Below, piece by piece: positions 1 through 58,998 of a DNA stretch of 58,998 bases. Made by a program: the position numbers and the translations under genes. Within the stretch, counting starts at the first letter, position 1, and the number at the start of each line of letters is the position of its first letter. Location: sequence record LT907986.1. One strand, written 5' to 3'. The notes beneath the pieces were generated by a model, which did not search any database, had not been told where the DNA came from, and worked only from the letters and a program-made list of their open reading frames with translations. Source of the stretch: Escherichia phage vB_Eco_SLUR25.

Positions 1-481
1 ACTCCATGCACATATGCTTAGCGTCAATATAAACACATACAGCTTTCGGGTTTAAATGCTCCTGAATAGCGTCTGCAATCTGGTTAGTAAGACGTTCCTG
101 AACTTGCAGTCGACGGCTAAAAGCATCCACAACGCGAGACAGCTTACTGAGCCCAACGATCTTCCCATTTGGGACATACCCCACGACAGCATGGCCGATA
201 ATAGGAGCCATGTGATGCTCACAATGACTGTATACAGGAATATCACGGACAATGACCATTTCATTGGTGTTTTCCGCCCCATCCTCAAACGTCTTAAACA
301 GACCAGCAATATCTACATCATAACCGCTAAACCACGTTGCATAAGCTTTCGCTACACGCTCCGGAGTTTCCTCCAGCCCTGGGCGCAGAACCGCGCTAAC
401 TTCAATTTGGGATAGTAAAGTACGCACAGCGTTAGCAATACGGAATTGAACACCTTCACTATTAATACTATATTTAGACAT
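1..481 (-). CDS. folE: GTP cyclohydrolase I (FolE), N-terminal part; gene continues across the window junction into 58744..58998
   Basis: Reverse translation from ATG at 481..479 gives MSKYSINSEGVQFRIANAVRTLL...VYSHCEHHMAPIIGHAVVGYVP...; the CEHH core and length fit FolE; frame continues into the end-of-window copy. Confidence 0.75.
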   Translation of the reverse strand, partial: MSKYSINSEGVQFRIANAVRTLLSQIEVSAVLRPGLEETPERVAKAYATWFSGYDVDIAGLFKTFEDGAENTNEMVIVRDIPVYSHCEHHMAPIIGHAVVGYVPNGKIVGLSKLSRVVDAFSRRLQVQERLTNQIADAIQEHLNPKAVCVYIDAKHMCME

Positions 482-3296: not shown

Positions 3297-3552
3297 TTCT
3301 TTTCACCTTCACTAATGTTTGTTTATAATCCATACCTTCAAGGTCAACTTCTGCCATTTCACAAAAGTTATCATCTTCCCAGTATGATATCCATTTAGTT
3401 TCACTGTCCATCAACGTTGGCTCATACTCGAATCCGTAAACTGTACCGTCCTGATCCGTAGCCAGCCACCGTACCCATTCAGGGACATCAAGCTTATTAC
3501 CAAAGTATTCAACTTCTTTAGTATGCACAACCTGACTTAACACACGCATCAT
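3250..3552 (-). CDS. hypothetical protein embedded in the 7-deazaguanine cluster
   Basis: 100 aa ORF between queC and queE, acidic, no recognised motif. Confidence 0.45.
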   Translation of the reverse strand: MMRVLSQVVHTKEVEYFGNKLDVPEWVRWLATDQDGTVYGFEYEPTLMDSETKWISYWEDDNFCEMAEVDLEGMDYKQTLVKVKRNDHFGRSETASGNDH

Positions 3553-4256
3553 TCAACCCCGATATATTTGTGAACCTGAAGCTGCAACGTGTACCCGTGT
3601 TTCATACAGCTTTGGACAACGGCTTGGATGTTACTGTGGTTAAGGTCTTCATCCTGCTCGTCCATTGGCTGTAAATATATCTTACCCTTGAAACCCTTCG
3701 GAGGTCTAGCGATAAATGGCGTAGCTTGATGATCTAATGCCTGAAGCGGCAAACCATCTTCCACGTTTACACAGCACGCTTTAAGTACATATTTAAATGC
3801 GTTTGCGCGGTACAGCACAGTAGGATGAATTTTTGAAGTCTTGGGACTACATACAATTACAGGTAACTGGGAAAAGTTCTTAGGTAAAGGCATAGACCCA
3901 TTAGTTTCAATTTGCACCAAATAGCCGCGCGATAACAGTTGTTCAATAAACGGGTTAATTTGCTGACGGAACGGTTCACCCCCAGTGATAACCACAAGTG
4001 AGGTGCTATTGCCTGATTCCAGCTTACGGCTTTCGATTAAACGCATAATATCGACAATATGATAAAGACTACGACCAACAGTATAATCCGTATCACAGCC
4101 AGGACATTGCAGGTTGCACCCAGCAAGACGCACAAATACAGCAGGTTGGCCGCAGAATGGACCTTCACCCTGAATGGTAGAGAATACCGAATGCACGTCT
4201 AAATACATATCGTTTTCTTTAGAACGGGACTCGGGAGCTTGTTGATTAATATTCAT
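3549..4256 (-). CDS. queE: 7-carboxy-7-deazaguanine synthase (QueE), radical SAM
   Basis: 235 aa; radical-SAM Cys triad CNLQCPGC (CxxxCxxC) near N-terminus; overlaps upstream gene by 4 nt. Confidence 0.85.
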   Translation of the reverse strand: MNINQQAPESRSKENDMYLDVHSVFSTIQGEGPFCGQPAVFVRLAGCNLQCPGCDTDYTVGRSLYHIVDIMRLIESRKLESGNSTSLVVITGGEPFRQQINPFIEQLLSRGYLVQIETNGSMPLPKNFSQLPVIVCSPKTSKIHPTVLYRANAFKYVLKACCVNVEDGLPLQALDHQATPFIARPPKGFKGKIYLQPMDEQDEDLNHSNIQAVVQSCMKHGYTLQLQVHKYIGVE

Positions 4257-4278
4257 CTTAAATCCTCTAGTGAAAAAG

Positions 4279-4300
4279 AAAGCGCCTCATTGGGCGCTTT
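4279..4300 (-). terminator. rho-independent terminator-like hairpin after gene 4326..5129
   Basis: Stem AAAGCGCC/GGCGCTTT with 6-nt loop; minus-strand reading is followed by a T5 tract. Confidence 0.5.
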
Positions 4301-4325
4301 CATTATAACGTGATATGTTTTGATA

Positions 4326-5129
4326 TTACAAGCCGTTCAGGGCTTCCGGTACTGGCATAGGTACGCGACCAGTTACACCATTAAACTTCTTCCAACGTGC
4401 ATACTGAGTTTTAACAGTATCTTCGTTCAGACCGTGGCGACCAGCCAGATTCAGAACATAAGAGATCGGAGCAGGCTGACCCAGCGTAGCGCTAATCTGA
4501 TCCATCAGAGCCCAGGCACGACCGCAGGAAGTTTCAGGTTGTGGACGACGAACACCATTCTGTTCAGGCATACGGTTCGCTTCTTTCGCTTTTTCACGTT
4601 CAGCTTTTTCGCGGGCTTTTTCAGCAGCCTTTTCAGCCTGTTTAGCAGCGCGGATCTTGTCTTTGAAGCCTTTGATAGACGAATCCAGTTCGTCAACCAT
4701 GCTCTGCGCAGCAGTCACTGCACCGGACAGATCTTCACCTTTGGATTTTTTAACAACTGCTTTCAGATCTTTCAGAGCATTCTTTAAATGCTTCAGCTGT
4801 TCAGAACCCTTAGATTCTGCTTCCGTAATCTGTTCAACAGTGCTTTCATCGGTAATACCGGATAAAGCAAACTTCACGGTTTCAACTGCCTGGGAAAGAG
4901 CGGTAAATTTATTTTCAGCTTCAGTACGAATTTCAGCTTGTTTCTTTTCGGCGGCAGCTTTTTTCTCTGCTTCTTTTTTCTCTTTTGCTACGCGTGCAGC
5001 TTCAGCGGCAGCGGCTTTTTTAGCTTCTGCGTCGTTAGCAGTAGCTTCTTTCTTTGCAGGCTTAGCAGATTTTGCAGCGGCAGCAGCGGCTGCGGCAGCA
5101 GCGGCTTTCTTATCTTCAATATTACTCAT
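4326..5129 (-). CDS. Ala/Lys/Glu-rich low-complexity protein with a conserved C-terminal domain (paralogous to C-terminus of 20655..21269 product)
   Basis: ATG at 5129 with RBS GGAGTG 6 nt upstream (5138 is GTG); poly-Ala run encoded by GCN repeats near 5075..5110; C-terminus NGVRRP...W...LG.P...TV..QYARWKKFNG. Confidence 0.55.
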   Translation of the reverse strand: MSNIEDKKAAAAAAAAAAAKSAKPAKKEATANDAEAKKAAAAEAARVAKEKKEAEKKAAAEKKQAEIRTEAENKFTALSQAVETVKFALSGITDESTVEQITEAESKGSEQLKHLKNALKDLKAVVKKSKGEDLSGAVTAAQSMVDELDSSIKGFKDKIRAAKQAEKAAEKAREKAEREKAKEANRMPEQNGVRRPQPETSCGRAWALMDQISATLGQPAPISYVLNLAGRHGLNEDTVKTQYARWKKFNGVTGRVPMPVPEALNGL

Positions 5130-5256: not shown

Positions 5257-5751
5257 TTAGCTCTTCGCACCTCTGCCCGGTGTCCATGCTGCTTGCAATG
5301 CGGGTCGCTCACAAATGACCCTGGCACCGGAAATAATACTACCCTCCCGTTCAGCATCGTATTTGACACGGGCAGGTTTCCAAAGTCCTTCATCCATTGA
5401 CGGAACGTATTGCCCAATTTGAGGTGAGCAAAAGCCTTGGATATCGTATTCCACACAGAATTCGGCTTGTGCGCTGATTTGGGCGTGATCCAGGATTGTT
5501 TCTGGAAGTTGCGTAAAGTAATCAAACAAAATGCGCTCAACAATTTCCCGTTCATAAGGTGCAGCTCCTAAGTTTTCTGTCAGGTTAATATAAAGCATTT
5601 GAAGATCAACATCTTCAAGATCTTTTAAATCGTTTACTGGTGTTACCAGTGTTGACTCTGGACAACAAATAATTCCAAGTTGGTGTAGTGTCAGCCAATT
5701 GGGATGCTTTGCCAAGAGTTCAAATTTATCTGTATCAATCAGGACGTACAT
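5257..5751 (-). CDS. hypothetical protein
   Basis: 164 aa ORF; ATG at 5751 preceded by AGGGGAT RBS. Confidence 0.5.
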   Translation of the reverse strand: MYVLIDTDKFELLAKHPNWLTLHQLGIICCPESTLVTPVNDLKDLEDVDLQMLYINLTENLGAAPYEREIVERILFDYFTQLPETILDHAQISAQAEFCVEYDIQGFCSPQIGQYVPSMDEGLWKPARVKYDAEREGSIISGARVICERPALQAAWTPGRGAKS

Positions 5752-5810: not shown

Positions 5811-7787
5811 TTAGAAAGGAACGTAATCCGGATCATCTACTTGTACAGGGTTAACCACATTGTTCACCGTTATACCTTGCGTATTCTGCGAAACAATATC
5901 GTCCCAGCTTACATCATCGTTATAGCTCGGACCTTCTGTCGTTCCATCCTGACCGTATACTTTAACCTGAATAGCTTCGTCGTCCTGTGGAGCTTCAAAC
6001 TTACCGAAACAAGTACCGTCATAATCATAGTTCAATATCTCAGGCCATTTCTTATTGGTATGAACTTTGATGTATTTTGGTGTTTTAAGCATTGCAGCAA
6101 CATCAAGAGCTTCTTCAATAGTTTGTGGTAAAGGTAAATGTGTCCTTTTCTTCCACCATGCGACAGCTTTACGACCTGCCCAGTCGCCATGAAGCAGAGC
6201 TACCCATTCGCTGAATATTTTACTACCGCAATAATAAGTCACCTTCATTGTTGGAGGTTTAGAGCTGTCATTGCGTTTAGTATGCTTTGCATAAGTCACA
6301 TGCGTAACTTTAAAGTCTTCAACTACTGGAATATCCTGCTTGATCAGGGCTTCCGTACTTGCTGCTTTCTTGAGTTTGGTCTGGAACTTAAACTCATGAC
6401 CGCAAAAGCCTTCTTTAACGTAATCCGTCCCGCGTAGCCTAAATCCTTTCAGATATAATTGTTGAACTTGTTCCTGTGTGACGCTGTCCATTGGGATTGG
6501 TGCGAAGCCACCGCAATAGCGAGCAGATGCATGATTATACGACCCACATACATCGCATTCTTTAACCGGAGCAGTACCAGCACCTTTTTCGCCAGGGCGC
6601 TTGGGTTTAACAGGGTCGTTAATAGGGCCCAAACGGCGCGTATTACCGCTGAAATCCAGTACAAGGCAGTTCTGCTTGGGGCTTGCCGCAATAGCTTGTA
6701 AGCGCCCCTCCTGCGTGGAAAGATCAAAGCCCTCCGCGTACACCGGACGCGTACCGCGACCCAGCATCTGGACCCATAGCACCGCCGACGCAGTGGGGCG
6801 GAGCATGATAATTAAGTCCAGCATTGGATGATCAAAACCTGTGGTTAAGACGTTATTGTTAGTTAATGCTCGAAATTCACCGCGCTTAAACTTCTCAATA
6901 ATCTCGTCACGTTCTTTTGCATCAAGCTTAGAGTGAATACATCCACAGCTAATACCCATATCGTTCAGCATATCACACGCGTCTTTAGCGTGTTCAATAC
7001 CAGAACAAAATATAAGCCAGCTTTGACGGTCTTCACCACATTCAATTGCTTCCTCAAGTGCGCGGAGTGTTGCGTCATCGCGGTTTACCGCACTTTGCAG
7101 CTCACTCTGGATAAACTCACCGCCGCGTTTACCTACCCCGTTGAGGTCCAGCTCCATCTTAGTACGCTTTGGCACAACCGGAAGAAGATAACCTTGCTCC
7201 AGGAACCAGTTGAAGGCTTCCGGAGTAGTTGCATCAAACGTTACCTTATCAAATAACGCATCATCGTCTTCGTTTTCCTTAACAATTGAACCATACCCCA
7301 GTCGATAAGGTGTAGCAGTAAGACCGATGATTTTTAAGTAAGGGTTAACTTCACGCAACGCTGCAAAGAATTTCTTATACATTGTTGCATCACGCGGACT
7401 AATAAGATGCGCTTCGTCCACAAAAATAAGATCAACTTTGCCGAACTTTTTCGGATGCTTAGCAACGGACGCAATCCCTGCAAAGGTAATAAGATTGTAG
7501 ACTTCTTTACGCTTCAAACCCGCGCTGTAAATACCTGCTGGCGCTTCGGGCCAGACTTTCATTAATTTATCATAGTTTTGTGCAATTAACTCTTTGACGT
7601 GAGTTAACATCATTACGCGCTGGTTTGGATACCATTTGTAAAGCAGATCGAGGAACCCCGCGATAACGAGCGATTTTCCTGTCCCTGTTGGTAACAGGAT
7701 CAAAGGGTTCCCCGCGTTACCCTTTTCAGCATCAAAATAGCGGAATACGCTATAAACTGCTTCCTGTTGATAATCGCGGAGCCTCAT
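5811..7787 (-). CDS. superfamily 2 DNA helicase (DEAH-box)
   Basis: Walker A PTGTGKS, motif II VDEAH, later motifs TATP and QMLGRGTR; ATG at 7787 (track start 7793 is TTG). Confidence 0.8.
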   Translation of the reverse strand: MRLRDYQQEAVYSVFRYFDAEKGNAGNPLILLPTGTGKSLVIAGFLDLLYKWYPNQRVMMLTHVKELIAQNYDKLMKVWPEAPAGIYSAGLKRKEVYNLITFAGIASVAKHPKKFGKVDLIFVDEAHLISPRDATMYKKFFAALREVNPYLKIIGLTATPYRLGYGSIVKENEDDDALFDKVTFDATTPEAFNWFLEQGYLLPVVPKRTKMELDLNGVGKRGGEFIQSELQSAVNRDDATLRALEEAIECGEDRQSWLIFCSGIEHAKDACDMLNDMGISCGCIHSKLDAKERDEIIEKFKRGEFRALTNNNVLTTGFDHPMLDLIIMLRPTASAVLWVQMLGRGTRPVYAEGFDLSTQEGRLQAIAASPKQNCLVLDFSGNTRRLGPINDPVKPKRPGEKGAGTAPVKECDVCGSYNHASARYCGGFAPIPMDSVTQEQVQQLYLKGFRLRGTDYVKEGFCGHEFKFQTKLKKAASTEALIKQDIPVVEDFKVTHVTYAKHTKRNDSSKPPTMKVTYYCGSKIFSEWVALLHGDWAGRKAVAWWKKRTHLPLPQTIEEALDVAAMLKTPKYIKVHTNKKWPEILNYDYDGTCFGKFEAPQDDEAIQVKVYGQDGTTEGPSYNDDVSWDDIVSQNTQGITVNNVVNPVQVDDPDYVPF

Positions 7788-7789
7788 AA

Positions 7790-8698
7790 TCAATCTTTCC
7801 CGTAATAATTAGCTACTTGATAGTTTTGACAACCAACTTTCTGCCCTTGCGTATCCACTGCGGCGGAATGGAAATTGCAATACCATGTTCCATCTTCTTT
7901 TGGTTCAAGGAATTGGCATGTGCGGCAGTTTACTTCCGGCATAGTTTTACGCCAGCATAGTGAGGAGTGATCGCACCATTTACATTCGAAGAAAGTGGAA
8001 TCTTTAAATGCGCGGTCCGGAATATCTGTAGCAATAGCAATCTGCACACCACGATCAATATACATGTCCGCGGTAACAGGATCAAACGGAATAATTTCTG
8101 CGTAAACTTCATCGTCATTCTTGTTTACAGCAAGATATAACGCTGCGCCAAGACCTAGTTTTCGCATGTACACGTTCATCTGTACATAGTGCTCAGGTTT
8201 GGCTTCTTTAACACCTTTAGCTTTCAGCTTTTTAAAAGACTTATCGTTATGCGTCTTCATTTCGGTGAGCACAGGCATCCCAGGCTGCACGTCCGGACAA
8301 CCTATAACCACACCATCGCAGGAACCGCCAAAGTGTCCGCCAGCTTCGCTGATACGGAACTGGTGTCCATTTTCGTCCTGCTGATAGACCTGCATACCTG
8401 CCGCAAGAAGCATAGCAATGAAACGCGCTTCTTCCAGATGTCCGCGGTTAAACAGTCGAAGCTGGCGTCCGTCAAACTCTTTGCGTGTAGCCCAGCGATA
8501 TCCATAGAAAAGCTTGCGTGCGCATTGCTGCCCAATAAGGGAAGCGCCTAAGTGACTGCGGTTACCGCTTTCAGGGCGATAAGCGTCTTCAATTGTGGGA
8601 ATGACTACGCCAAGATACTTACGGTAAGTCCCACCCTGATCTTTTTGCACACCGTCATTGATCGCTTGAAGTGTTTTTTCTGCAATATAAATAGCCAT
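7790..8698 (-). CDS. PD-(D/E)xK exonuclease, Cas4-like with Fe-S cysteine cluster
   Basis: 302 aa; D...EMK nuclease-like motif; N-terminal Cys plus C-terminal CxxCx5C (CKWCDHSSLC), the Cas4/RecB-family pattern. Confidence 0.6.
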   Translation of the reverse strand: MAIYIAEKTLQAINDGVQKDQGGTYRKYLGVVIPTIEDAYRPESGNRSHLGASLIGQQCARKLFYGYRWATRKEFDGRQLRLFNRGHLEEARFIAMLLAAGMQVYQQDENGHQFRISEAGGHFGGSCDGVVIGCPDVQPGMPVLTEMKTHNDKSFKKLKAKGVKEAKPEHYVQMNVYMRKLGLGAALYLAVNKNDDEVYAEIIPFDPVTADMYIDRGVQIAIATDIPDRAFKDSTFFECKWCDHSSLCWRKTMPEVNCRTCQFLEPKEDGTWYCNFHSAAVDTQGQKVGCQNYQVANYYGKD

Positions 8699-19264: not shown

Positions 19265-19451
19265 CCCGGCCAGCGTGCAACATTAAGACAGGTTCTGCAA
19301 CTGCACGAACATAGACATACACGTTAGCAATCTTAACTTCGCCCGGCAGCTTACCGCGAAGCGAACATAATTTGCGACGACTAAGACCGAAGCGGTTTTC
19401 AATTTCTGATGTGGTTATGTATTTAAGATCAAATTCTTTTTGACAGTCCAT
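19236..19451 (-). CDS. small helix-turn-helix DNA-binding protein, first gene of leftward arm
   Basis: 71 aa; ITTSEIENRFGLSRRKLCSL is HTH-like; GGAGG RBS 5 nt before ATG at 19451. Confidence 0.5.
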   Translation of the reverse strand: MDCQKEFDLKYITTSEIENRFGLSRRKLCSLRGKLPGEVKIANVYVYVRAVAEPVLMLHAGRVVPEVGRGS

Positions 19452-20279
19452 ACCTACCTCCTAACAGCACTATACACAATCCATAGTAGGTCAGCCACAA
19501 TTATTCCACCTGAAGTTATAATGTGAGCGGATTGTTAATATATAACCACATGTGATGGAAAGTTTTGGGTAGGAATAGTTGGTGCTCCACAGTTTGCACA
19601 ATGTGACGGAAAGTTTTGTGAGTTTTGCAAAGTTTTGCGAAGTTTTGTGGTGCCACTGTTGCTAAAAACTTTAATAAAAACAATAAGTTGGTGCAGTAAG
19701 TTTTTGCGTTTTGGGGTAAAACGCATTTTTTACCCTAATACCCTAATCCCGACTGTTAGTAAAAAACGTATATAAATCAATAGGATAGATACTAAATGAA
19801 TAGTGAATGGAATGGGTAGAAATCCAAATGATGGAAGTGGAATAAATTATTCCTACTTGATGGAATAATGGAATCGGTACTCTGGAGCGCAAAAACCTAA
19901 AACTTTCAGTCAACAGACTAAAAACGGATAGAAACTAAAAGTTAATAAGTAATAGCATAAATATATATAAAATAAGGATTTATTAGTAATGTATATAGTA
20001 CCTATTGGTATTATTTGAATGTTTTTGGGTCTGCAACAAAAAGTCGCAAAACTCACAAAAAGTGAAAGATAACAATTCGTGACAAGATTGTTAATGGAAT
20101 AGGGTGTATGGATATACAGTATTATTCCAGATTCCGGAATAATTGGAATAATGGAATAAATTATTGAACTATTGTGATCGGAATGTATATCAAGCTATAA
20201 TGCGCTTAATCGCGGGATATTGGAGGAGGACTTTATTGCGCGGTTAACCGGACCAGTAGGAGGGCTGGCCCGGAGTAGT
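19452..20279. promoter_or_regulatory. 830-bp non-coding control region: phased GTTTTG repeats, TGGAATA palindromes, AT-rich core, 15-bp long-range inverted repeat (origin/early promoter region candidate)
   Basis: GTTTTG at 19561, 19612, 19621, 19631, 19642 (about 10-bp phasing); palindromes GGAATAAATTATTCC (19838..19852) and ATTCCGGAAT (20130..20139); TTTTGTGAGTTTTGC (19613..19627) inverted at 20045..20059; AT-rich 19925..20000. Confidence 0.5.
19705..19730 (+). terminator. terminator-like hairpin plus T-tract on plus strand inside control region
   Basis: GCGTTTT-GGGGT-AAAACGC followed by ATTTTTT. Confidence 0.4.
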
Positions 20280-20480
20280 TTAGAGCTGTACAGGTATGAA
20301 GTGGGCTAATGTGTCGTCGGACATGATACCCGACAATTTTTCGCTTACCCATTCGGACCAAATGCTATCCGGTTCCTGGCGGTGTACAAACCAGATTTCG
20401 GATGTGCCTTCTTTGCGCATCGGCTGCACTTCTACAAGAAACTTGTCCTGCATGAGGCGGGTGAAGCATACGCTGGTCAT
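20280..20480 (-). CDS. hypothetical protein
   Basis: 66 aa ORF; weak RBS. Confidence 0.35.
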   Translation of the reverse strand: MTSVCFTRLMQDKFLVEVQPMRKEGTSEIWFVHRQEPDSIWSEWVSEKLSGIMSDDTLAHFIPVQL

Positions 20481-20654
20481 TGGAACTGGCTTTTCGTGTT
20501 TATTGTAATAAGGAGTCAGTAATTTATTTCCGAAGTTAGCAACTTCATAAACAGTTCCTTTGCGAAGACCTCTGATGTCTGTGTAAGAGCGATAAATGTT
20601 TTCATGTTTACTCCTAGGGCTCCCGCAGAAGCCGTTGGTTGATGTGGTTATAGA

Positions 20655-21269
20655 TTATGCGTCCAGTCCGTTGTACTTGCGCCAGGCGTAGAACTGAATG
20701 GCAACCGTTGTTCCGTTGTAAGAAGGCATTGCAGCTTTCATTTCTTTCAGCTCCGGCGTGCGGCCCAGTTCGGCTAAAAGTTTGTCGCCCATTGCCCACA
20801 CTTCGGCGGTTTTTCCTTTCAGAGGCTTGCGAGCGCCATTTTTGAAATCACAGCGAGCAGCTTTTGCATCCTGTTTTGGTGCGGCAGCTTTTGGCTCTTC
20901 AATTTTGATTTCAGAAACCTGCGTGGCAGCTTTTGCATGTTTCATATCTTTCTCTTCCTCCTGCTCCAGGGCTTCGAGGCAGCTTTTGACGATTTCCGGA
21001 TTTACCATCGGGCGCAGTACCGAGACGCTGGCAGCTGGCGCGGCGGTCGGTGCCGGGACTTTCTGCTCCGGTTGTTGCGCTTTTTTATGGTCGCGCAGCA
21101 CCTGAAGCACTTCCTTCTCGACGATGTAAAAACCGATTTCGTCCTGATGGATAAGCTGTTCGTGTGCATCGCGTGCAACCTGGCCCCAGCGGGTCTTAAG
21201 GGCGCGGCGTGCATTCGTTTTCATGGTGTAACGCATTTTGTCCTGTTCGCGGTGAGTTACTTTAGACAT
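20655..21269 (-). CDS. hypothetical protein with Ala/Lys/Glu-rich middle and C-terminal domain shared with 4326..5129 product
   Basis: ATG at 21269 (MSKVTHREQ...) with AGGAG RBS; C-terminus NGARKP...W...LGRTP...TV.IQFYAWRKYNG. Confidence 0.5.
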   Translation of the reverse strand: MSKVTHREQDKMRYTMKTNARRALKTRWGQVARDAHEQLIHQDEIGFYIVEKEVLQVLRDHKKAQQPEQKVPAPTAAPAASVSVLRPMVNPEIVKSCLEALEQEEEKDMKHAKAATQVSEIKIEEPKAAAPKQDAKAARCDFKNGARKPLKGKTAEVWAMGDKLLAELGRTPELKEMKAAMPSYNGTTVAIQFYAWRKYNGLDA

Positions 21270-21828: not shown

Positions 21829-22228
21829 AACGCGCCTCCAAGTATGGTTAAGAAGTAGTACCGTGTTGCTATGGGTACATAATAGCGATGCATTGTGATA
21901 TTGAATAGGCCAAAAGTGCTATTTTAGAATCGTTTTGCATCTAGTGAAAATTATGCTTGCCCTACATGTTTAGCACCAATGCCCTAACTAATATCACACG
22001 ATCCGGTCTACGCGCTTGCACACATACATCTAAGGAGCGCCGGACCAGTTCCCACGGACTGGGAGTAGTACACCGGATCTACCAGGGGGATCCGGTTCCG
22101 CGTATGTGCAGAATCTACCAGGTAGGATCGGTACTATGTGGGCGCCGGAAATACCAGGGGCGCTCAACCGTCTCCGGTCGTCCTGTAAGCTGGTCCAAAA
22201 TATTTTTATAAAAAGATGCAAAAAGGTG

Positions 22229-54376: not shown

Positions 54377-56362
54377 TTAGGCGTATCCCATGTCTTCGAG
54401 ATACTTCTCTGCTTTAGCTATATAAGCATCATAATCTATGTCGTCCGGTATTTTATCCGGTAGCGTCATGATCGGGACACCTCCCGCGCTACCAGCTACA
54501 CGGTTGCCCGAGTTAGCATAGATTATTTCAGGTGTTTCTTCATTAGTGCTTAAATACCAGCGTACAACCTTACCCAAAAATTCGCCATTCCATACCGCGC
54601 CGCCTTTTACCGCACGTAGGATAATGAATTTTCTAATATCGTTGCAATTGCGTATAGTACGAGAAACAGGCGTACCGTGGGCCAAACATTCACATACAGC
54701 TTCCATAATGATCTCACCAGTACAGTTCTTTTGAAGACCTGTCTTTGCGAACCACCCTTTACGTTTAATTTCAACATTTCCTTCCTCGTCAGGTTCTTTT
54801 ACTGCAACATAGTTATTGACGTTAGCGCTGTACAGCTTGTCATAGTAGTTGGACTCCATTTCAAAGCCTGTCACGGATTCCCACCACTTGATCATATTAT
54901 CAACGAAGTCCTGCATGTGGTCTGGATACTTAACCACAATGCCGTCCGTGTTCGCTGAAATTACTTTAACACCATTCAACTCAAATGCTTCAATAAGCAT
55001 CAACAGTGAAAGCTGCCCTGTTAATGTAACTTGTATCAATAATTGCGGCGCGTAAAGGACAGACCACATAGACCCCAGCTTACCAAACGATCCGTTAATA
55101 ACGATCTTCAGCGTGTTGGCTGTGTTCTTGTCTCCGCTGTGCTTAGCTGCAATACGGCGGTCTACAATACTTTTATAAACACGAAGGAACGCTGGTCCCA
55201 ACTGTTCTGGATATAAGCCCTGATTAAGAATGATTGAAGGATAATAAGACGTTACGTCAATGTCCCGCTTTTTGATACCAGGCTCTTTACCGTGGCCAGC
55301 ACACTCTTCGGAGCTATGCAAACCACCAATACCCATACGGTAGACACCGTCCGCAATCTTGATCTCAAGACCTGTTAATGCAGGAGGTAAGCTGACACCA
55401 CCGTTATCGCTAACAATAAAGCGACAGTCCCGAACAATATCCAAAACACTATTCATCAAAGGAGTTTGAAAACGAATAAAGTCTGGTATGTTGTATGCAT
55501 ACTTTGTTCCAGGATAAACTTGCGGACGCTGTGGGCGCACGCCCGTCAACGCTTGGATTTCGTGCTTAATTACGTCTTCTGCAATCTGTGCATCTGAGCG
55601 TGAACGCAGGTCCACACCGTATTCTTGCGACATAATTTCACGCAAGTGAATAGGCTCTTGTAATGCAATAAAACATTCTTCCGTCTGTACAAGGTCGTTA
55701 ATACAGTACCAGCGCACAATAAGCATCTGGTCTTGCGTCAACATTGTATTAGGCTTGAACGGTAAATCCTGCATACGACGAGTATGTACACGTCCGCCGT
55801 ATTGTTTCAAACCGCCGGACCCAGGCAGCACTTCCATGATATCGATGTGGTTAACGTTCTGCATACGCTTGAGACGGTAACTCTTCAATACATCCGAAGG
55901 ACGCCAGTCTTCAACGATTATTTTATCAGTTGCGTCTTTAAGCTGAGCATTAGAGCAGCCGTTAAGCGCAAGCGTAGCAATGGGCATATCGTACCCGTTA
56001 CCGTTAAAGCTTACGATAAGGAAGTTTGTCATTACCCAGTTAAGTAGCAAGCAATTCAAACTACAACCGTGATACATTTCGAAGTAGACAACTTTCTTAG
56101 TCCTTACTCCGCGGAATGCGATCAAGAAGTAGTTTGGATAACATTCAATATCATATACAAGCGGTTCGCGGTTAATCCATGCTTGAATAAGTTCATCCTG
56201 CGTATACAGGTTGTATTGGAAGTTCCGCGCTTCCTCAAGGTTAGGCAAATAATCCTGGCGCTCCCAAGTGCGCTCCGGCGGTAAACGTTTAACCTTTTCT
56301 TTCTTTGCTTTTGGCTCAGGCGGTAAGTCCTGCCAAAAGAAACCAATAGCATCTGTCCGCAT
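54377..56362 (-). CDS. family B DNA polymerase with 3'-5' exonuclease domain
   Basis: Exo motifs VYDIECYP and FNGNGYDMP; pol motifs DVTSYYPSI, KIVINGSFGK, ANTDG; ATG 56362 in TAATG overlap. Confidence 0.75.
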   Translation of the reverse strand: MRTDAIGFFWQDLPPEPKAKKEKVKRLPPERTWERQDYLPNLEEARNFQYNLYTQDELIQAWINREPLVYDIECYPNYFLIAFRGVRTKKVVYFEMYHGCSLNCLLLNWVMTNFLIVSFNGNGYDMPIATLALNGCSNAQLKDATDKIIVEDWRPSDVLKSYRLKRMQNVNHIDIMEVLPGSGGLKQYGGRVHTRRMQDLPFKPNTMLTQDQMLIVRWYCINDLVQTEECFIALQEPIHLREIMSQEYGVDLRSRSDAQIAEDVIKHEIQALTGVRPQRPQVYPGTKYAYNIPDFIRFQTPLMNSVLDIVRDCRFIVSDNGGVSLPPALTGLEIKIADGVYRMGIGGLHSSEECAGHGKEPGIKKRDIDVTSYYPSIILNQGLYPEQLGPAFLRVYKSIVDRRIAAKHSGDKNTANTLKIVINGSFGKLGSMWSVLYAPQLLIQVTLTGQLSLLMLIEAFELNGVKVISANTDGIVVKYPDHMQDFVDNMIKWWESVTGFEMESNYYDKLYSANVNNYVAVKEPDEEGNVEIKRKGWFAKTGLQKNCTGEIIMEAVCECLAHGTPVSRTIRNCNDIRKFIILRAVKGGAVWNGEFLGKVVRWYLSTNEETPEIIYANSGNRVAGSAGGVPIMTLPDKIPDDIDYDAYIAKAEKYLEDMGYA

Positions 56363-57315
56363 TAGACACGTTCTCCAATTAACACACCGCGAAGATTTTC
56401 CCCAAAGAATGCGCAAGGTTGCGGATATAAACTAAAGTCCGCAGTCTTAACCACATTTTCGAGTAATAACAGGATGTCGATATTGTAAACTCCTGTTATT
56501 GATCTGTCCTGCAATACGAAGCTTGCACCTTCTGCATCATCGTAATGAGTACGTGCTAGACCGTTTTCAATATATACGCGAGGACGATCTTCCGCAAAAG
56601 GTTTGATTTTATGCAAGCCCTCAAAAAGACCTGGATCAACAGGATGTGCATTGCATTGAACATTTAAAATACGACGTATATCAGGCCACTCCGCATCAAT
56701 AAGCTGTGTTCGCAACCAGCGACCTTCCGGATAATGAAACGTCACATTGTTCTTGCTAACCTGAATATGTGTCGGGTTAGCTTTAATGCGCAGTATTTCT
56801 TTAATAGCAACAGACGGTATTATGCAGTCAATAGGGAATTGATTACCAAACCAATATTCCGCAATGGTGACGTTATTTGTAGCAAACAGGCTACCGTTAT
56901 TAATCAGAATACCACAGGCCCACGGGCGGGACGCATCCGAGCCTACAAACGGAGCAACAGACTTCACACCGTGTACGAAGCGAGCACCGTCTATTTCGTA
57001 TAAATCGCCTTCAGGGAATACGTGAGGCGTTTCCTTGTCAATGCAGCGTATAGCAACACGAAACGGTCCGGACTTGATATTAAGTTTACCGTTAGCCATC
57101 ATTGTTAACTGTACGGTTTCGTCACAGTTTGAAATAGCTTTAATCATAGGACCAGCTTCGGGCTTGCAATCAATATCCAGCTCAATAGGGCTACCCAGTG
57201 CAATAACACCGTTAAAGCCCTGTACCTGTCCATCACGGATAAGAAAACTGGTAAGCCCTTCTACCAGTTCCTTTTTAGCGACGGAGCCTTGAACAAATTT
57301 AAGAGCGTCTAACAT
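56362..57315 (-). CDS. DNA polymerase sliding clamp (DnaN/beta-clamp-like)
   Basis: 317 aa; QLIDAEWPDIRRILN resembles recalled DnaN motif KLVDGRFPDYRRVLP; immediately upstream of polymerase gene. Confidence 0.5.
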   Translation of the reverse strand: MLDALKFVQGSVAKKELVEGLTSFLIRDGQVQGFNGVIALGSPIELDIDCKPEAGPMIKAISNCDETVQLTMMANGKLNIKSGPFRVAIRCIDKETPHVFPEGDLYEIDGARFVHGVKSVAPFVGSDASRPWACGILINNGSLFATNNVTIAEYWFGNQFPIDCIIPSVAIKEILRIKANPTHIQVSKNNVTFHYPEGRWLRTQLIDAEWPDIRRILNVQCNAHPVDPGLFEGLHKIKPFAEDRPRVYIENGLARTHYDDAEGASFVLQDRSITGVYNIDILLLLENVVKTADFSLYPQPCAFFGENLRGVLIGERV

Positions 57316-57542
57316 TAGCGATCCTCGATTGCTCTAATTGTGGTTAAATCTAATTCACAGGTTGGAGGGTATCCATAAAGTCCCATTTGTTTTCCTTGTG
57401 CATTAAACCATGTACCTGACGGATCCTGCCACTGCTTAGGTGTCTTGTGGAGAAATACTACTCTGTTTTCACCGTAATAATTAATTCTTACGCCCGTGTG
57501 AGTATATTTACGTTTACCTTTTGGTCTTCTTAAGTTAGCCAT
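57315..57542 (-). CDS. hypothetical protein
   Basis: 75 aa from ATG 57542 (57545 is TTG); overlaps dpdA stop. Confidence 0.4.
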   Translation of the reverse strand: MANLRRPKGKRKYTHTGVRINYYGENRVVFLHKTPKQWQDPSGTWFNAQGKQMGLYGYPPTCELDLTTIRAIEDR

Positions 57543-58462
57543 CAAAACAACTCCATTACACGATCACGGAATGTGCCGTCATGGGTAGCGTTAATGTTTG
57601 CAGCAATTACACCATACGCCCATAAGTTGAAGGCAGCACGTGATTCATAGATTGTTGATAAACGTTCGTAAGTGAAACCGTTTTGCTCAAGGTATTTAAG
57701 GACAGCGTCTTGTTCAATCTCAGTTAATGTTGAAACATGCTTACCAAAATGATGGCGGTCCGGTGACTTATCTGATACGCGCATTGGTCCCCACGGAGGG
57801 GTAACCACACTTCCAAACGCTGCTGCTTGAATCCAGGAGGATGAGTCGCAGCTATACCACGGATAACGTTCCATGATGGTTGTTGACGTAATACCAAACG
57901 CATGAAGTTTAATCTTAGCACGTCCGCTACCGTCGCAAATATATTTGTCCCACATGCGGTCAAGCCAAGTCTTAAGCGTGTCCGTTGAACGTCCCACCAT
58001 ACCCCCAATGGTGATATATTCGTAGTTCTTCATGTAGTATTCAAGATAGCGGAAGTCCTCCCCAAAGTGAAAGCAAGGTAACGGTTTAGCACCGCGTGCT
58101 TCCATTTCAAGCTGGTTACGGTAGGTTTGCAACGGATCACCGATACCATCAAGCACCGATGCCATTACCGCACCATCTTCTACCCGCAAAATATCTTTAT
58201 TGCGCTTGATGTATTCGCAGTATTCAACAATATCAATGTGAGCACCTAACGAGTGCGCGGAGAATGCACCGGAGTCGAGAAACACTTTAGCTCCATCCGC
58301 ACGCATCTGATCAACATACTTTTGACGTCCAACGTAGTGGTATGATTCCAAAATATGGGGCAGATTGCGCGTGATATTTTTCTCATGCTCCGACAGCTTT
58401 TCATAACGCTGCTGTCCAGGCATATATCCGTTCGTGTAAACTGCTGCCATAAAAACGTTCAT
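57542..58462 (-). CDS. dpdA: DpdA-like DNA 7-deazaguanine transglycosylase (TGT-fold)
   Basis: 306 aa; LDSGAF matches TGT catalytic Asp region (DSGGFQ-like); ITIGGMVG matches TGT GG(L/M)(S/V)G motif; clustered with folE/queD/queC/queE. Confidence 0.75.
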   Translation of the reverse strand: MNVFMAAVYTNGYMPGQQRYEKLSEHEKNITRNLPHILESYHYVGRQKYVDQMRADGAKVFLDSGAFSAHSLGAHIDIVEYCEYIKRNKDILRVEDGAVMASVLDGIGDPLQTYRNQLEMEARGAKPLPCFHFGEDFRYLEYYMKNYEYITIGGMVGRSTDTLKTWLDRMWDKYICDGSGRAKIKLHAFGITSTTIMERYPWYSCDSSSWIQAAAFGSVVTPPWGPMRVSDKSPDRHHFGKHVSTLTEIEQDAVLKYLEQNGFTYERLSTIYESRAAFNLWAYGVIAANINATHDGTFRDRVMELF

Positions 58463-58743: not shown

Positions 58744-58998
58744 TTATTTACAAGCTTCAAGGAACTCCCGGCGCCATTCTTTACCAATATTGCTACCATG
58801 CTCCAGTTCTGTAGCGCCCCGGAACGCTTTGGTAATAGTAGAGCTGCCGCATACCTGTTTAACACCGCGCGACTCCATGCACATATGCTTAGCGTCAATA
58901 TAAACACATACAGCTTTCGGGTTTAAATGCTCCTGAATAGCGTCTGCAATCTGGTTAGTAAGACGTTCCTGAACTTGCAGTCGACGGCTAAAAGCATC
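58744..58998 (-). CDS. folE: GTP cyclohydrolase I (FolE), C-terminal part (stop at 58744..58746); 58872..58998 duplicates 1..127
   Basis: Reading frame from 1..481 continues through the junction: ...[46 protein letters not shown]. Confidence 0.7.
58872..58998. repeat. 127-bp exact direct repeat of window positions 1..127 (terminal overlap of a circular assembly)
   Basis: Last 127 nt are identical to first 127 nt; repeat lies inside the folE coding sequence. Confidence 0.9.

Follow-up and report, generated by a model that had tools for sequence, protein, structure and literature searches.

A C-terminal domain resembling the KfrA head in two paralogous proteins of Escherichia phage vB_Eco_SLUR25 and in a phage protein family encoded beside QueE

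The KfrA proteins of IncP-1 and IncU plasmids (R751, RK2, RA3) are portrayed in PMC7783346 and PMC7821693 as DNA-binding heads carried on long helical coiled-coil tails. A closer relative of the system described here is the Seuratvirus DruSM1, in which deletions of single open reading frames (ORFs) were tried and one product, ORF72, was assigned to KfrA_N by HHpred (Ojima et al., bioRxiv 10.1101/2024.04.14.589459); this assignment and the anti-BREX activity of ORF72 are already in the literature. The DNA analysed here, referred to below as the window, is the 58,998-nucleotide sequence of Escherichia phage vB_Eco_SLUR25 (LT907986.1), which by Megablast is identical (100 %) to LR025196.1 (vB_Eco_SLUR63; Seuratvirus, Queuovirinae) in rotated form. 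Two of its genes, gene 1 (SLURMMXVI_10033 in LR025196.1) and gene 2 (SLURMMXVI_10054, the orthologue of ORF72), are both labelled hypothetical protein and encode proteins ending in a common domain of about 70 amino acids. The same domain occurs in phage PaMx25 gp42, gp45 and gp43 (phrog_18634, phrog_21588 and phrog_7864), which belong to the same cassette between a helicase gene and QueE and carry no functional label. Domain-bearing proteins are sorted below into classes A, B and C. The features of the two window genes are as follows.

4326..5129, minus strand: gene 1 (class A), 267 amino acids plus stop; a helical region rich in lysine, alanine and glutamate, then the C-terminal domain
5073..5105, minus strand: tract of 11 alanines, gene-1 codons 9-19
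4578..5120, minus strand: predicted helical region of gene 1, residues 4-184, with helices at 4-90, 98-128 and 132-184
4365..4574, minus strand: shared C-terminal domain of gene 1, residues 186-255; beta-hairpin PEQNGVRRP, then three helices
20655..21269, minus strand: gene 2 (class B), 204 amino acids plus stop
20658..20861, minus strand: shared C-terminal domain of gene 2, residues 137-204, located by BLASTP and by a hidden Markov model (HMM)

The C-terminal 69 residues of the two proteins align with 30 % identity (E=1e-6, BLASTP, single comparison with compositional adjustment), and their alanine-rich parts give no significant BLASTP match. Both proteins match phrog_17772 and phrog_21588, and an HMM built only from sequences of other phages recovers gene 1 at 4.5e-34 and gene 2 at 5.1e-14; in a six-frame translation of the window the same HMM finds no third copy. 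Two tryptophans are invariant, and the hairpin motif is conserved, across 46 diverse domain sequences. A reading of the DNA made from its letters and ORFs (the sequence-only reading) had proposed that the two proteins share a C-terminal domain with the pattern NG.R.P...W...D...LG.P...TV..Q...WRK.NG; the pair is confirmed as truly paralogous, and the pattern is essentially right apart from a one-residue gap at LG.(.)P. The same reading held the two architectures to be alike, which applies to the domain and not to what precedes it: gene 1 has a long helical region, whereas gene 2 has a small N-terminal module followed by a non-helical linker rich in proline, alanine, glutamate and lysine. Both proteins are rich in alanine, lysine and glutamate, and low-complexity artefacts seem to underlie the public labels 'plectin 1', 'outer capsid protein' and 'FtrA domain', so that the similarity might be taken for a by-product of alanine-rich composition in unrelated proteins. 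There is next to no chance of this, however, as the match lies in the non-repetitive C-terminal 70 residues under compositional matrix adjustment, the tryptophans and hairpin recur throughout the 46 sequences, and the independent HMM picks exactly gene 1 and gene 2 from the six-frame translation.

An AlphaFold2 model of the domain alone has a predicted local distance difference test score (pLDDT) of 87 and consists of a short beta-hairpin and three helices; the isoelectric point (pI) of the domain is 9.5. Across 78 distinct class A sequences, conservation reaches at least 90 % in the hairpin (PEQNG.RRP) and in helix 3 (EYARWRKF; YARWKKF in gene 1), and helices 1 and 2 vary. This pattern indicates a conserved ligand, which could be a conserved protein or else DNA, the latter being bound at a conserved site, in modified form or irrespective of its sequence. 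An alignment of the 46 domain sequences was compared by hhalign with the helix-turn-helix of KfrA_N, using as reference R751 KfrA (PF11740 at E=3.9e-27) and its collected homologues. The two aligned with a probability of 80.8 % (P=1.3e-5) over 43 columns covering helices 1-3. None of 200 column-shuffled alignments reached the real score of 29.5 (mean 9.8, standard deviation 2.2, maximum 20.6), and the reversed alignment scored 8.9. Two class B relatives gave KfrA_N matches of E=0.011 and 0.045 (14.9-16.9 bits), below the PF11740 gathering score of 26.1 bits; gene 1 and gene 2 gave no KfrA_N match in Pfam scans.

In the profile comparison the predicted three-helix helix-turn-helix of the phage domain aligns with the KfrA head helix for helix (KfrA AVADELDAAGQNPT / ...EWRARK against phage ALADKLSAELGQPTP / ...RWRKF). 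In both groups a long alanine-rich alpha-helical region is attached, and the proteins are small, basic and encoded next to replication or maintenance genes. Unlike in KfrA, the order in gene 1 is inverted, with helices 4-184 first and the domain (186-255) last, and the phage domain has an additional beta-hairpin with an N-G-x-R-x-P motif at its N-terminal side. The full-length gene-1 model (pLDDT 90) differs from the coiled-coil KfrA tail in that the three helices before the domain are predicted to fold into a spectrin-repeat-like three-helix bundle, and the gene-2 linker is non-helical and rich in proline and alanine. The phage proteins also stay below the PF11740 gathering score, are encoded in lytic phages instead of plasmids with several paralogues per genome, and have no kfrB/KfrC or ParA/ParB (IncC/KorB) partners among the LR025196.1 annotations. 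Given the likeness together with the inverted order, the added hairpin and the unmet Pfam threshold, the domain is best placed as a KfrA_N-related variant and not as a member of that family.

The explanation preferred here, with a probability judged a little better than even, is that these are KfrA-like DNA-binding scaffold or regulator proteins of inverted order, forming a phage-restricted family. The domain of about 70 residues would be a remote homologue of the plasmid KfrA DNA-binding head, its hairpin, with the near-invariant N-G-x-R-x-P, and helix 3 would contact DNA, and the helical region of gene 1 may act as a spacer or oligomerisation scaffold. Several results weigh against this explanation. 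No Pfam gathering score is reached, and the 46 domain sequences give only scattered single matches; sequence searches of the PDB with two profiles returned chance matches only, and KfrA likewise has no solved relative by PDB sequence search. The hhalign probability is 81 % and not above 95 %, and the KfrA alignment is shallow (effective number of sequences, Neff, 1.8). It is unusual for sequence-specific regulators to keep a 'recognition helix' near-invariant among phages whose hosts differ so widely, and we infer, not observe, DNA binding for all members of the family. Convincing operator repeats were not found next to gene 1. NCBIfam scans of both proteins and of the domain sequences found no curated family, PHROGs gave 'unknown function' only, and BFVD returned uncharacterised members of the same family only. 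Another comparison is with HNH_repeat (PF18780), generic winged-helix and RecX-type repeats, in which a short module of three helices likewise has 'G-x-P' at the turn that follows helix 1 and an aromatic position in helix 3, and can be repeated in tandem. HNH_repeat was rejected: matches come from gene 2 (E=0.0078-0.044) and P0114 (E=0.0084) only, both below the 26-bit cut-off, which amounts to one of the 46 sequences in the bulk scan, and these sub-threshold hits are isolated and did not reproduce.

The distribution of the domain was examined by an exhaustive profile search, in which the family comprised at least 2087 cluster representatives at E<=1e-3 and 914 at E<=1e-10, some with two or three tandem copies of the domain. 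Among 185,579 bacterial and archaeal species genomes (one per species) only 8 loci were found, several of them on contigs of about 56 kb from metagenome-assembled genomes (MAGs), close to the size of related phage genomes. In the data searched, the family was found in phage-type sequence only. A query with gene 1 retrieved 148 records of the phage collection, from phages of Escherichia, Pseudomonas, Vibrio, Rhizobium and other hosts. The genes that surround gene 1 in the window are listed below.

3549..4256, minus strand: QueE, given for context; follows class A in 87 of 92 related loci
4278..4301, minus strand: strong intrinsic-terminator-like hairpin directly 3' of gene 1, before QueE
5257..5751, minus strand: 164-amino-acid protein (phrog_7864, the N-terminal module of 'class C'), upstream of gene 1
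5811..7793, minus strand: SF2 helicase, the upstream boundary of the cassette

The gene order Cas4 nuclease, SF2 helicase, [class B], small ORF, homologue of the 164-residue protein, class A, terminator, QueE-QueC-QueD-FolE-DpdA, clamp, PolA is found in PaMx25, RHEph04, Bhz54, ART and VspDsh_1, and S0112 has its upstream half as far as the end of the record. In 92 related loci drawn from IMG/VR, MAGs and phages, a QueE match lies a median of 151 nt downstream of the domain in 87; four of the five exceptions are contigs that are cut off, and the fifth is a Synechococcus phage with another gene order and with FolE and DpdA nearby. Class A also lies directly upstream of QueE in all ten further loci with downstream sequence, and proteins with two or three tandem domains fill the same slot. 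A search of viral contigs for loci of the triple-domain protein P0051 gave none. A terminator equivalent to 4278..4301 is annotated in Seurat, SA126VB, PaMx25 and Bhz54. As a second terminator-like hairpin lies 3' of the helicase, the 164-residue gene and gene 1 form a small unit bracketed by the two; a Shine-Dalgarno-like GGAGTG precedes the start of gene 1.

A second or third domain-bearing ORF is present in 54 of the 92 loci, typically about 1.3 kb upstream, and the HMM scores are bimodal, setting class A apart from classes B and C. Residues 73-202 of gene 2 match PaMx25 gp45, a class B protein (E=1e-11), and gene 2 is therefore the class B paralogue, relocated by 16 kb in Seuratvirus. Both paralogues are kept across Queuovirinae. 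The sequence-only reading had called the two genes unlinked, which turns out to be a peculiarity of Seuratvirus, since in most relatives the paralogues are about 1.3 kb apart or fused. The 164-residue protein is homologous to PaMx25 gp43 and to the N-terminal part of fusions that continue into a linker rich in lysine, alanine and glutamate and a class A domain (P0041, E=4e-8). Its phrog_7864 relatives are 220-245 residues long, with a divergent third copy of the domain at the C-terminus, or are joined to class A in one protein (P0041, P0092, P0105); the protein of the window is without a domain copy, the Seuratvirus version having lost its C-terminal domain. All three paralogues are adjacent in PaMx25, whereas in the window class B is 16 kb away and class C lacks the domain. 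Class B relatives (among them locus L009, 3241..3768; L017, 8346..8855; and L048, 3127..3834) combine the domain with varied N-terminal modules. These include a HeH/SAP/Rho_N-like motif (GKxELRxACKEAGI...; Pfam sub-threshold, E=0.01-0.09) and the segment 'MKTYSxKSNAKRAA', which also stands at the N-terminus of gene 2; some class B proteins have inserted CxxC...CxxC zinc ribbons, and all of these Pfam matches are sub-threshold.

The variety of these N-terminal modules bears on another explanation, in which the domain serves protein-protein docking, as a winged-helix-like adaptor of the kind found in RPA32C or the MCM C-terminus, and tethers a helical rod, a HeH/SAP-like module, a zinc ribbon or the module of the 164-residue protein to a single conserved partner in the phage; candidates are the SF2 helicase, the clamp and the polymerase. 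It is retained because of the conservation of the hairpin and helix 3, the most conserved surface hardly changing between phages whose hosts are distant, which is what a conserved protein partner would lead one to expect. It would also account for one domain ending three different proteins of a cassette, with copies sometimes fused, and for class B N-termini that have a putative DNA-binding motif of their own (the HeH/SAP-like one). However, the profile-profile similarity is to KfrA_N, a DNA-binding helix-turn-helix head, and the conserved positions hold basic or aromatic amino acids (R, R, R-W-R-K) in a domain that is itself basic. The adaptor is regarded as unlikely.

Experimental information comes from DruSM1. 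The published deletion primers were mapped onto the DruSM1 genome (PP596835.1), which gave the following equivalences.

ORF49: orthologue of gene 1, with 10 alanines against 11 in the window; deletion not obtained, classed essential
ORF50: equivalent of the 164-residue gene; deletion obtained, no phenotype listed
ORF72: orthologue of gene 2, 98 % identical; dispensable, and its loss sensitises the phage to BREX type I

The check PCR for ORF72 shows that 615 bp are gone, exactly as many as the gene contains. ORF72 supplied in trans restores infectivity on BREX type I, and the knockout is also sensitive to AVAST type III and qatABCD and, unlike the Que knockouts, not sensitive to the 'restriction-like' system; the deletion just upstream of gene 1 (PH_ORF52) was, like that of ORF49, not obtained (Ojima et al., bioRxiv 10.1101/2024.04.14.589459). 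The DruSM1 deletions support a difference in function between the gene-1 and gene-2 copies. In keeping with the KfrA-like explanation, the cassette paralogues A and B, and C in relatives, would act jointly on phage DNA, class A (gene 1) supplying a function required for growth and class B (gene 2), though dispensable, promoting infection of hosts with BREX type I. Two features of the screen add to the reservations given above: a single preprint is the source of the 'essential' call, for which it applies a rough cut-off (fewer than 10 plaques), and in the same screen the DNA polymerase and the clamp could be deleted and DpdA could not (bioRxiv 10.1101/2024.04.14.589459). That the polymerase and clamp could be deleted and DpdA could not (orthologues of window 54377..58462) is surprising, and may reflect the rough criterion or hint that DpdA is needed for growth. 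The data concern another isolate, and the preprint gives no mechanism and remarks neither on the domain common to ORF72 and ORF49 nor on the family as a hallmark of the helicase-to-QueE cassette. An Ocr-type anti-BREX DNA mimic would have a highly acidic surface, which the pI of 9.4 and net charge of +8 of the gene-2 protein do not fit.

The position next to QueE and the BREX phenotype could alternatively mean that the family is a dedicated accessory of 7-deazaguanine modification, which targets DpdA to DNA as a substitute for DpdB or activates the Que operon next to it; under-modified DNA would in that case be the cause of the BREX sensitivity seen in the gene-2 knockout. The placement of class A before QueE in nearly all loci fits this, as do the 148 phage records with the domain against 154 with full-length Queuovirinae-type DpdA, at matching per-genus counts. 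DruSM1 likewise becomes sensitive to BREX type I when Que genes are deleted, and no deletion was obtained for DpdA or for the gene-1 orthologue (bioRxiv 10.1101/2024.04.14.589459). Yet in E. coli plasmids 9-18 % of G is replaced by DpdA of phage 9g with Gat-QueC alone (PMC6884629), no copy of the domain was found in those phages of Mycobacterium, Cellulophaga, Arthrobacter and Streptococcus that carry DpdA, and in Seuratvirus 16 kb separate gene 2 from the Que genes. Loss of ORF72 and loss of Que genes also give different defence profiles (in the ORF72 knockout AVAST type III and qatABCD affected, the 'restriction-like' system not), and the synteny may reflect one vertically inherited module. 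A dedicated accessory role is accordingly considered improbable. The narrower proposal of an obligatory DpdA cofactor was downgraded, as 9g DpdA works in E. coli with no other phage proteins (PMC6884629), and a DpdB-like partner was discarded after Pfam and NCBIfam revealed no ParB-like ATPase domain, which preQ0 insertion would require of such a partner.

A more speculative suggestion, to which only a slight probability is given, is that the domain is a sequence-independent reader or handler of 7-deazaguanine-modified DNA, its hairpin and helix 3 recognising the modified duplex. If true, this would explain the restriction of the family to the phage lineage with Queuovirinae-type DpdA, its siting beside the Que operon and the exposure to BREX on loss of one paralogue, and it would be through the two or three paralogues that phage DNA is marked or organised as 'self' when it is replicated, transcribed or packaged.

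The family characterises a large, cosmopolitan lineage, Queuovirinae and relatives infecting Pseudomonas, Vibrio, Rhizobium, Stenotrophomonas and cyanobacteria, and it is absent from Pfam and without a functional label in PHROGs. Judging by a systematic knockout screen, one paralogue appears indispensable and another modulates sensitivity to BREX, AVAST and Qat; the mechanism, including the way in which gene 2 may counter BREX, is inferred. New in this work are the link between the anti-BREX ORF72 and its undeletable sister gene, the definition of the domain and of classes A, B and C, the conserved cassette beside the Que operon, the natural fusions and the inverted KfrA-like architecture. These provide a handle on a step of DNA metabolism or defence evasion in this lineage, a domain definition that can be curated, and corrections for misleading public annotations. 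Three gene-1 orthologues, KX534337, PQ202980 and KP064094, are labelled 'plectin 1', 'outer capsid protein' and 'transcriptional activator FtrA domain-containing protein'. None of the three is supported when the gene-1 protein of the window is scanned against Pfam and NCBIfam, and the labels probably stem from low-complexity or spectrin-like helical similarity; the 'FtrA transcriptional activator' label in phage CAjan, in particular, was rejected as having neither Pfam or NCBIfam support nor literature.

The N-terminal part of gene 1 had been likened by the sequence-only reading to a histone, from which nucleoid or DNA binding was surmised. Residues 1-66 contain 16 basic and 11 acidic residues and residues 67-159 have a net charge of -2. 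This charge balance and the predicted continuous helices argue against a histone-like or H1-like nucleoid protein, which would have few acidic residues and a basic tail of lysine, alanine and proline; DNA binding stays plausible through the C-terminal helix-turn-helix domain and not on grounds of composition. The 11 consecutive alanine codons are present as described (GCC GCT GCT GCC GCA GCC GCT GCT GCC GCT GCA), and since the codons are mixed they do not constitute a pure repeat. The expected variation in length among isolates is borne out: seven of eight aligned Seuratvirus orthologues have A11, KS_A3 has A15 plus a 7-residue deletion nearby, DruSM1 and one IMG/VR contig have A10, and another contig has AEA8. 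The more distant Vid5-like and Nonagvirus-like relatives are without the tract, which is therefore a genus-specific, mildly length-variable part of the helical N-terminus; nothing suggests a role as a regulated switch.

Some observations were made in the neighbourhood of gene 2. In DruSM1 the 44-amino-acid Druad1 gene (anti-Druantia type I) follows the gene-2 orthologue (locus L113, 2169..2303); in the window the stop of gene 2 (20640..20657) abuts the sequence that lies after Druad1 in DruSM1, and the window therefore appears to be without Druad1. The gene-2 orthologue of CAjan and of KS_A3 has an HNH endonuclease as its immediate neighbour. The 1.2 kb or so directly downstream of gene 2 (19451..20655) contains no annotated gene and no ORF longer than 70 amino acids, and is dense in short direct and inverted repeats, among them two copies of TGGAATAATGGAAT, GGAAAGTTTTG motifs and 24-nt inverted arms (19614 and 20037). 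A regulatory or origin-like function could account for this stretch, or it could be what is left of a mobile gene. No Rfam families or tRNAs were found in the window. A GC-rich island (22000..22190) in the divergent early control region contains three 16-nt direct repeats at a spacing of 36 nt (22073, 22109 and 22145; CCGGAWMTACCAGGGG-like). A search for operators or iterons did not find these 16-nt repeats (22073-22160) again in the vicinity of gene 1 or of the Que genes, nor elsewhere in the genome beyond chance, and the RNA fold of 22040-22185 is not significant (z=-1.5). Positions 1..127 of the window are identical to 58872..58998, window position 1 corresponding to LR025196.1 position 18503, and the 127-nt terminal overlap of LR025196.1 has the appearance of a k-mer artefact that arose when a circular or permuted genome was assembled.

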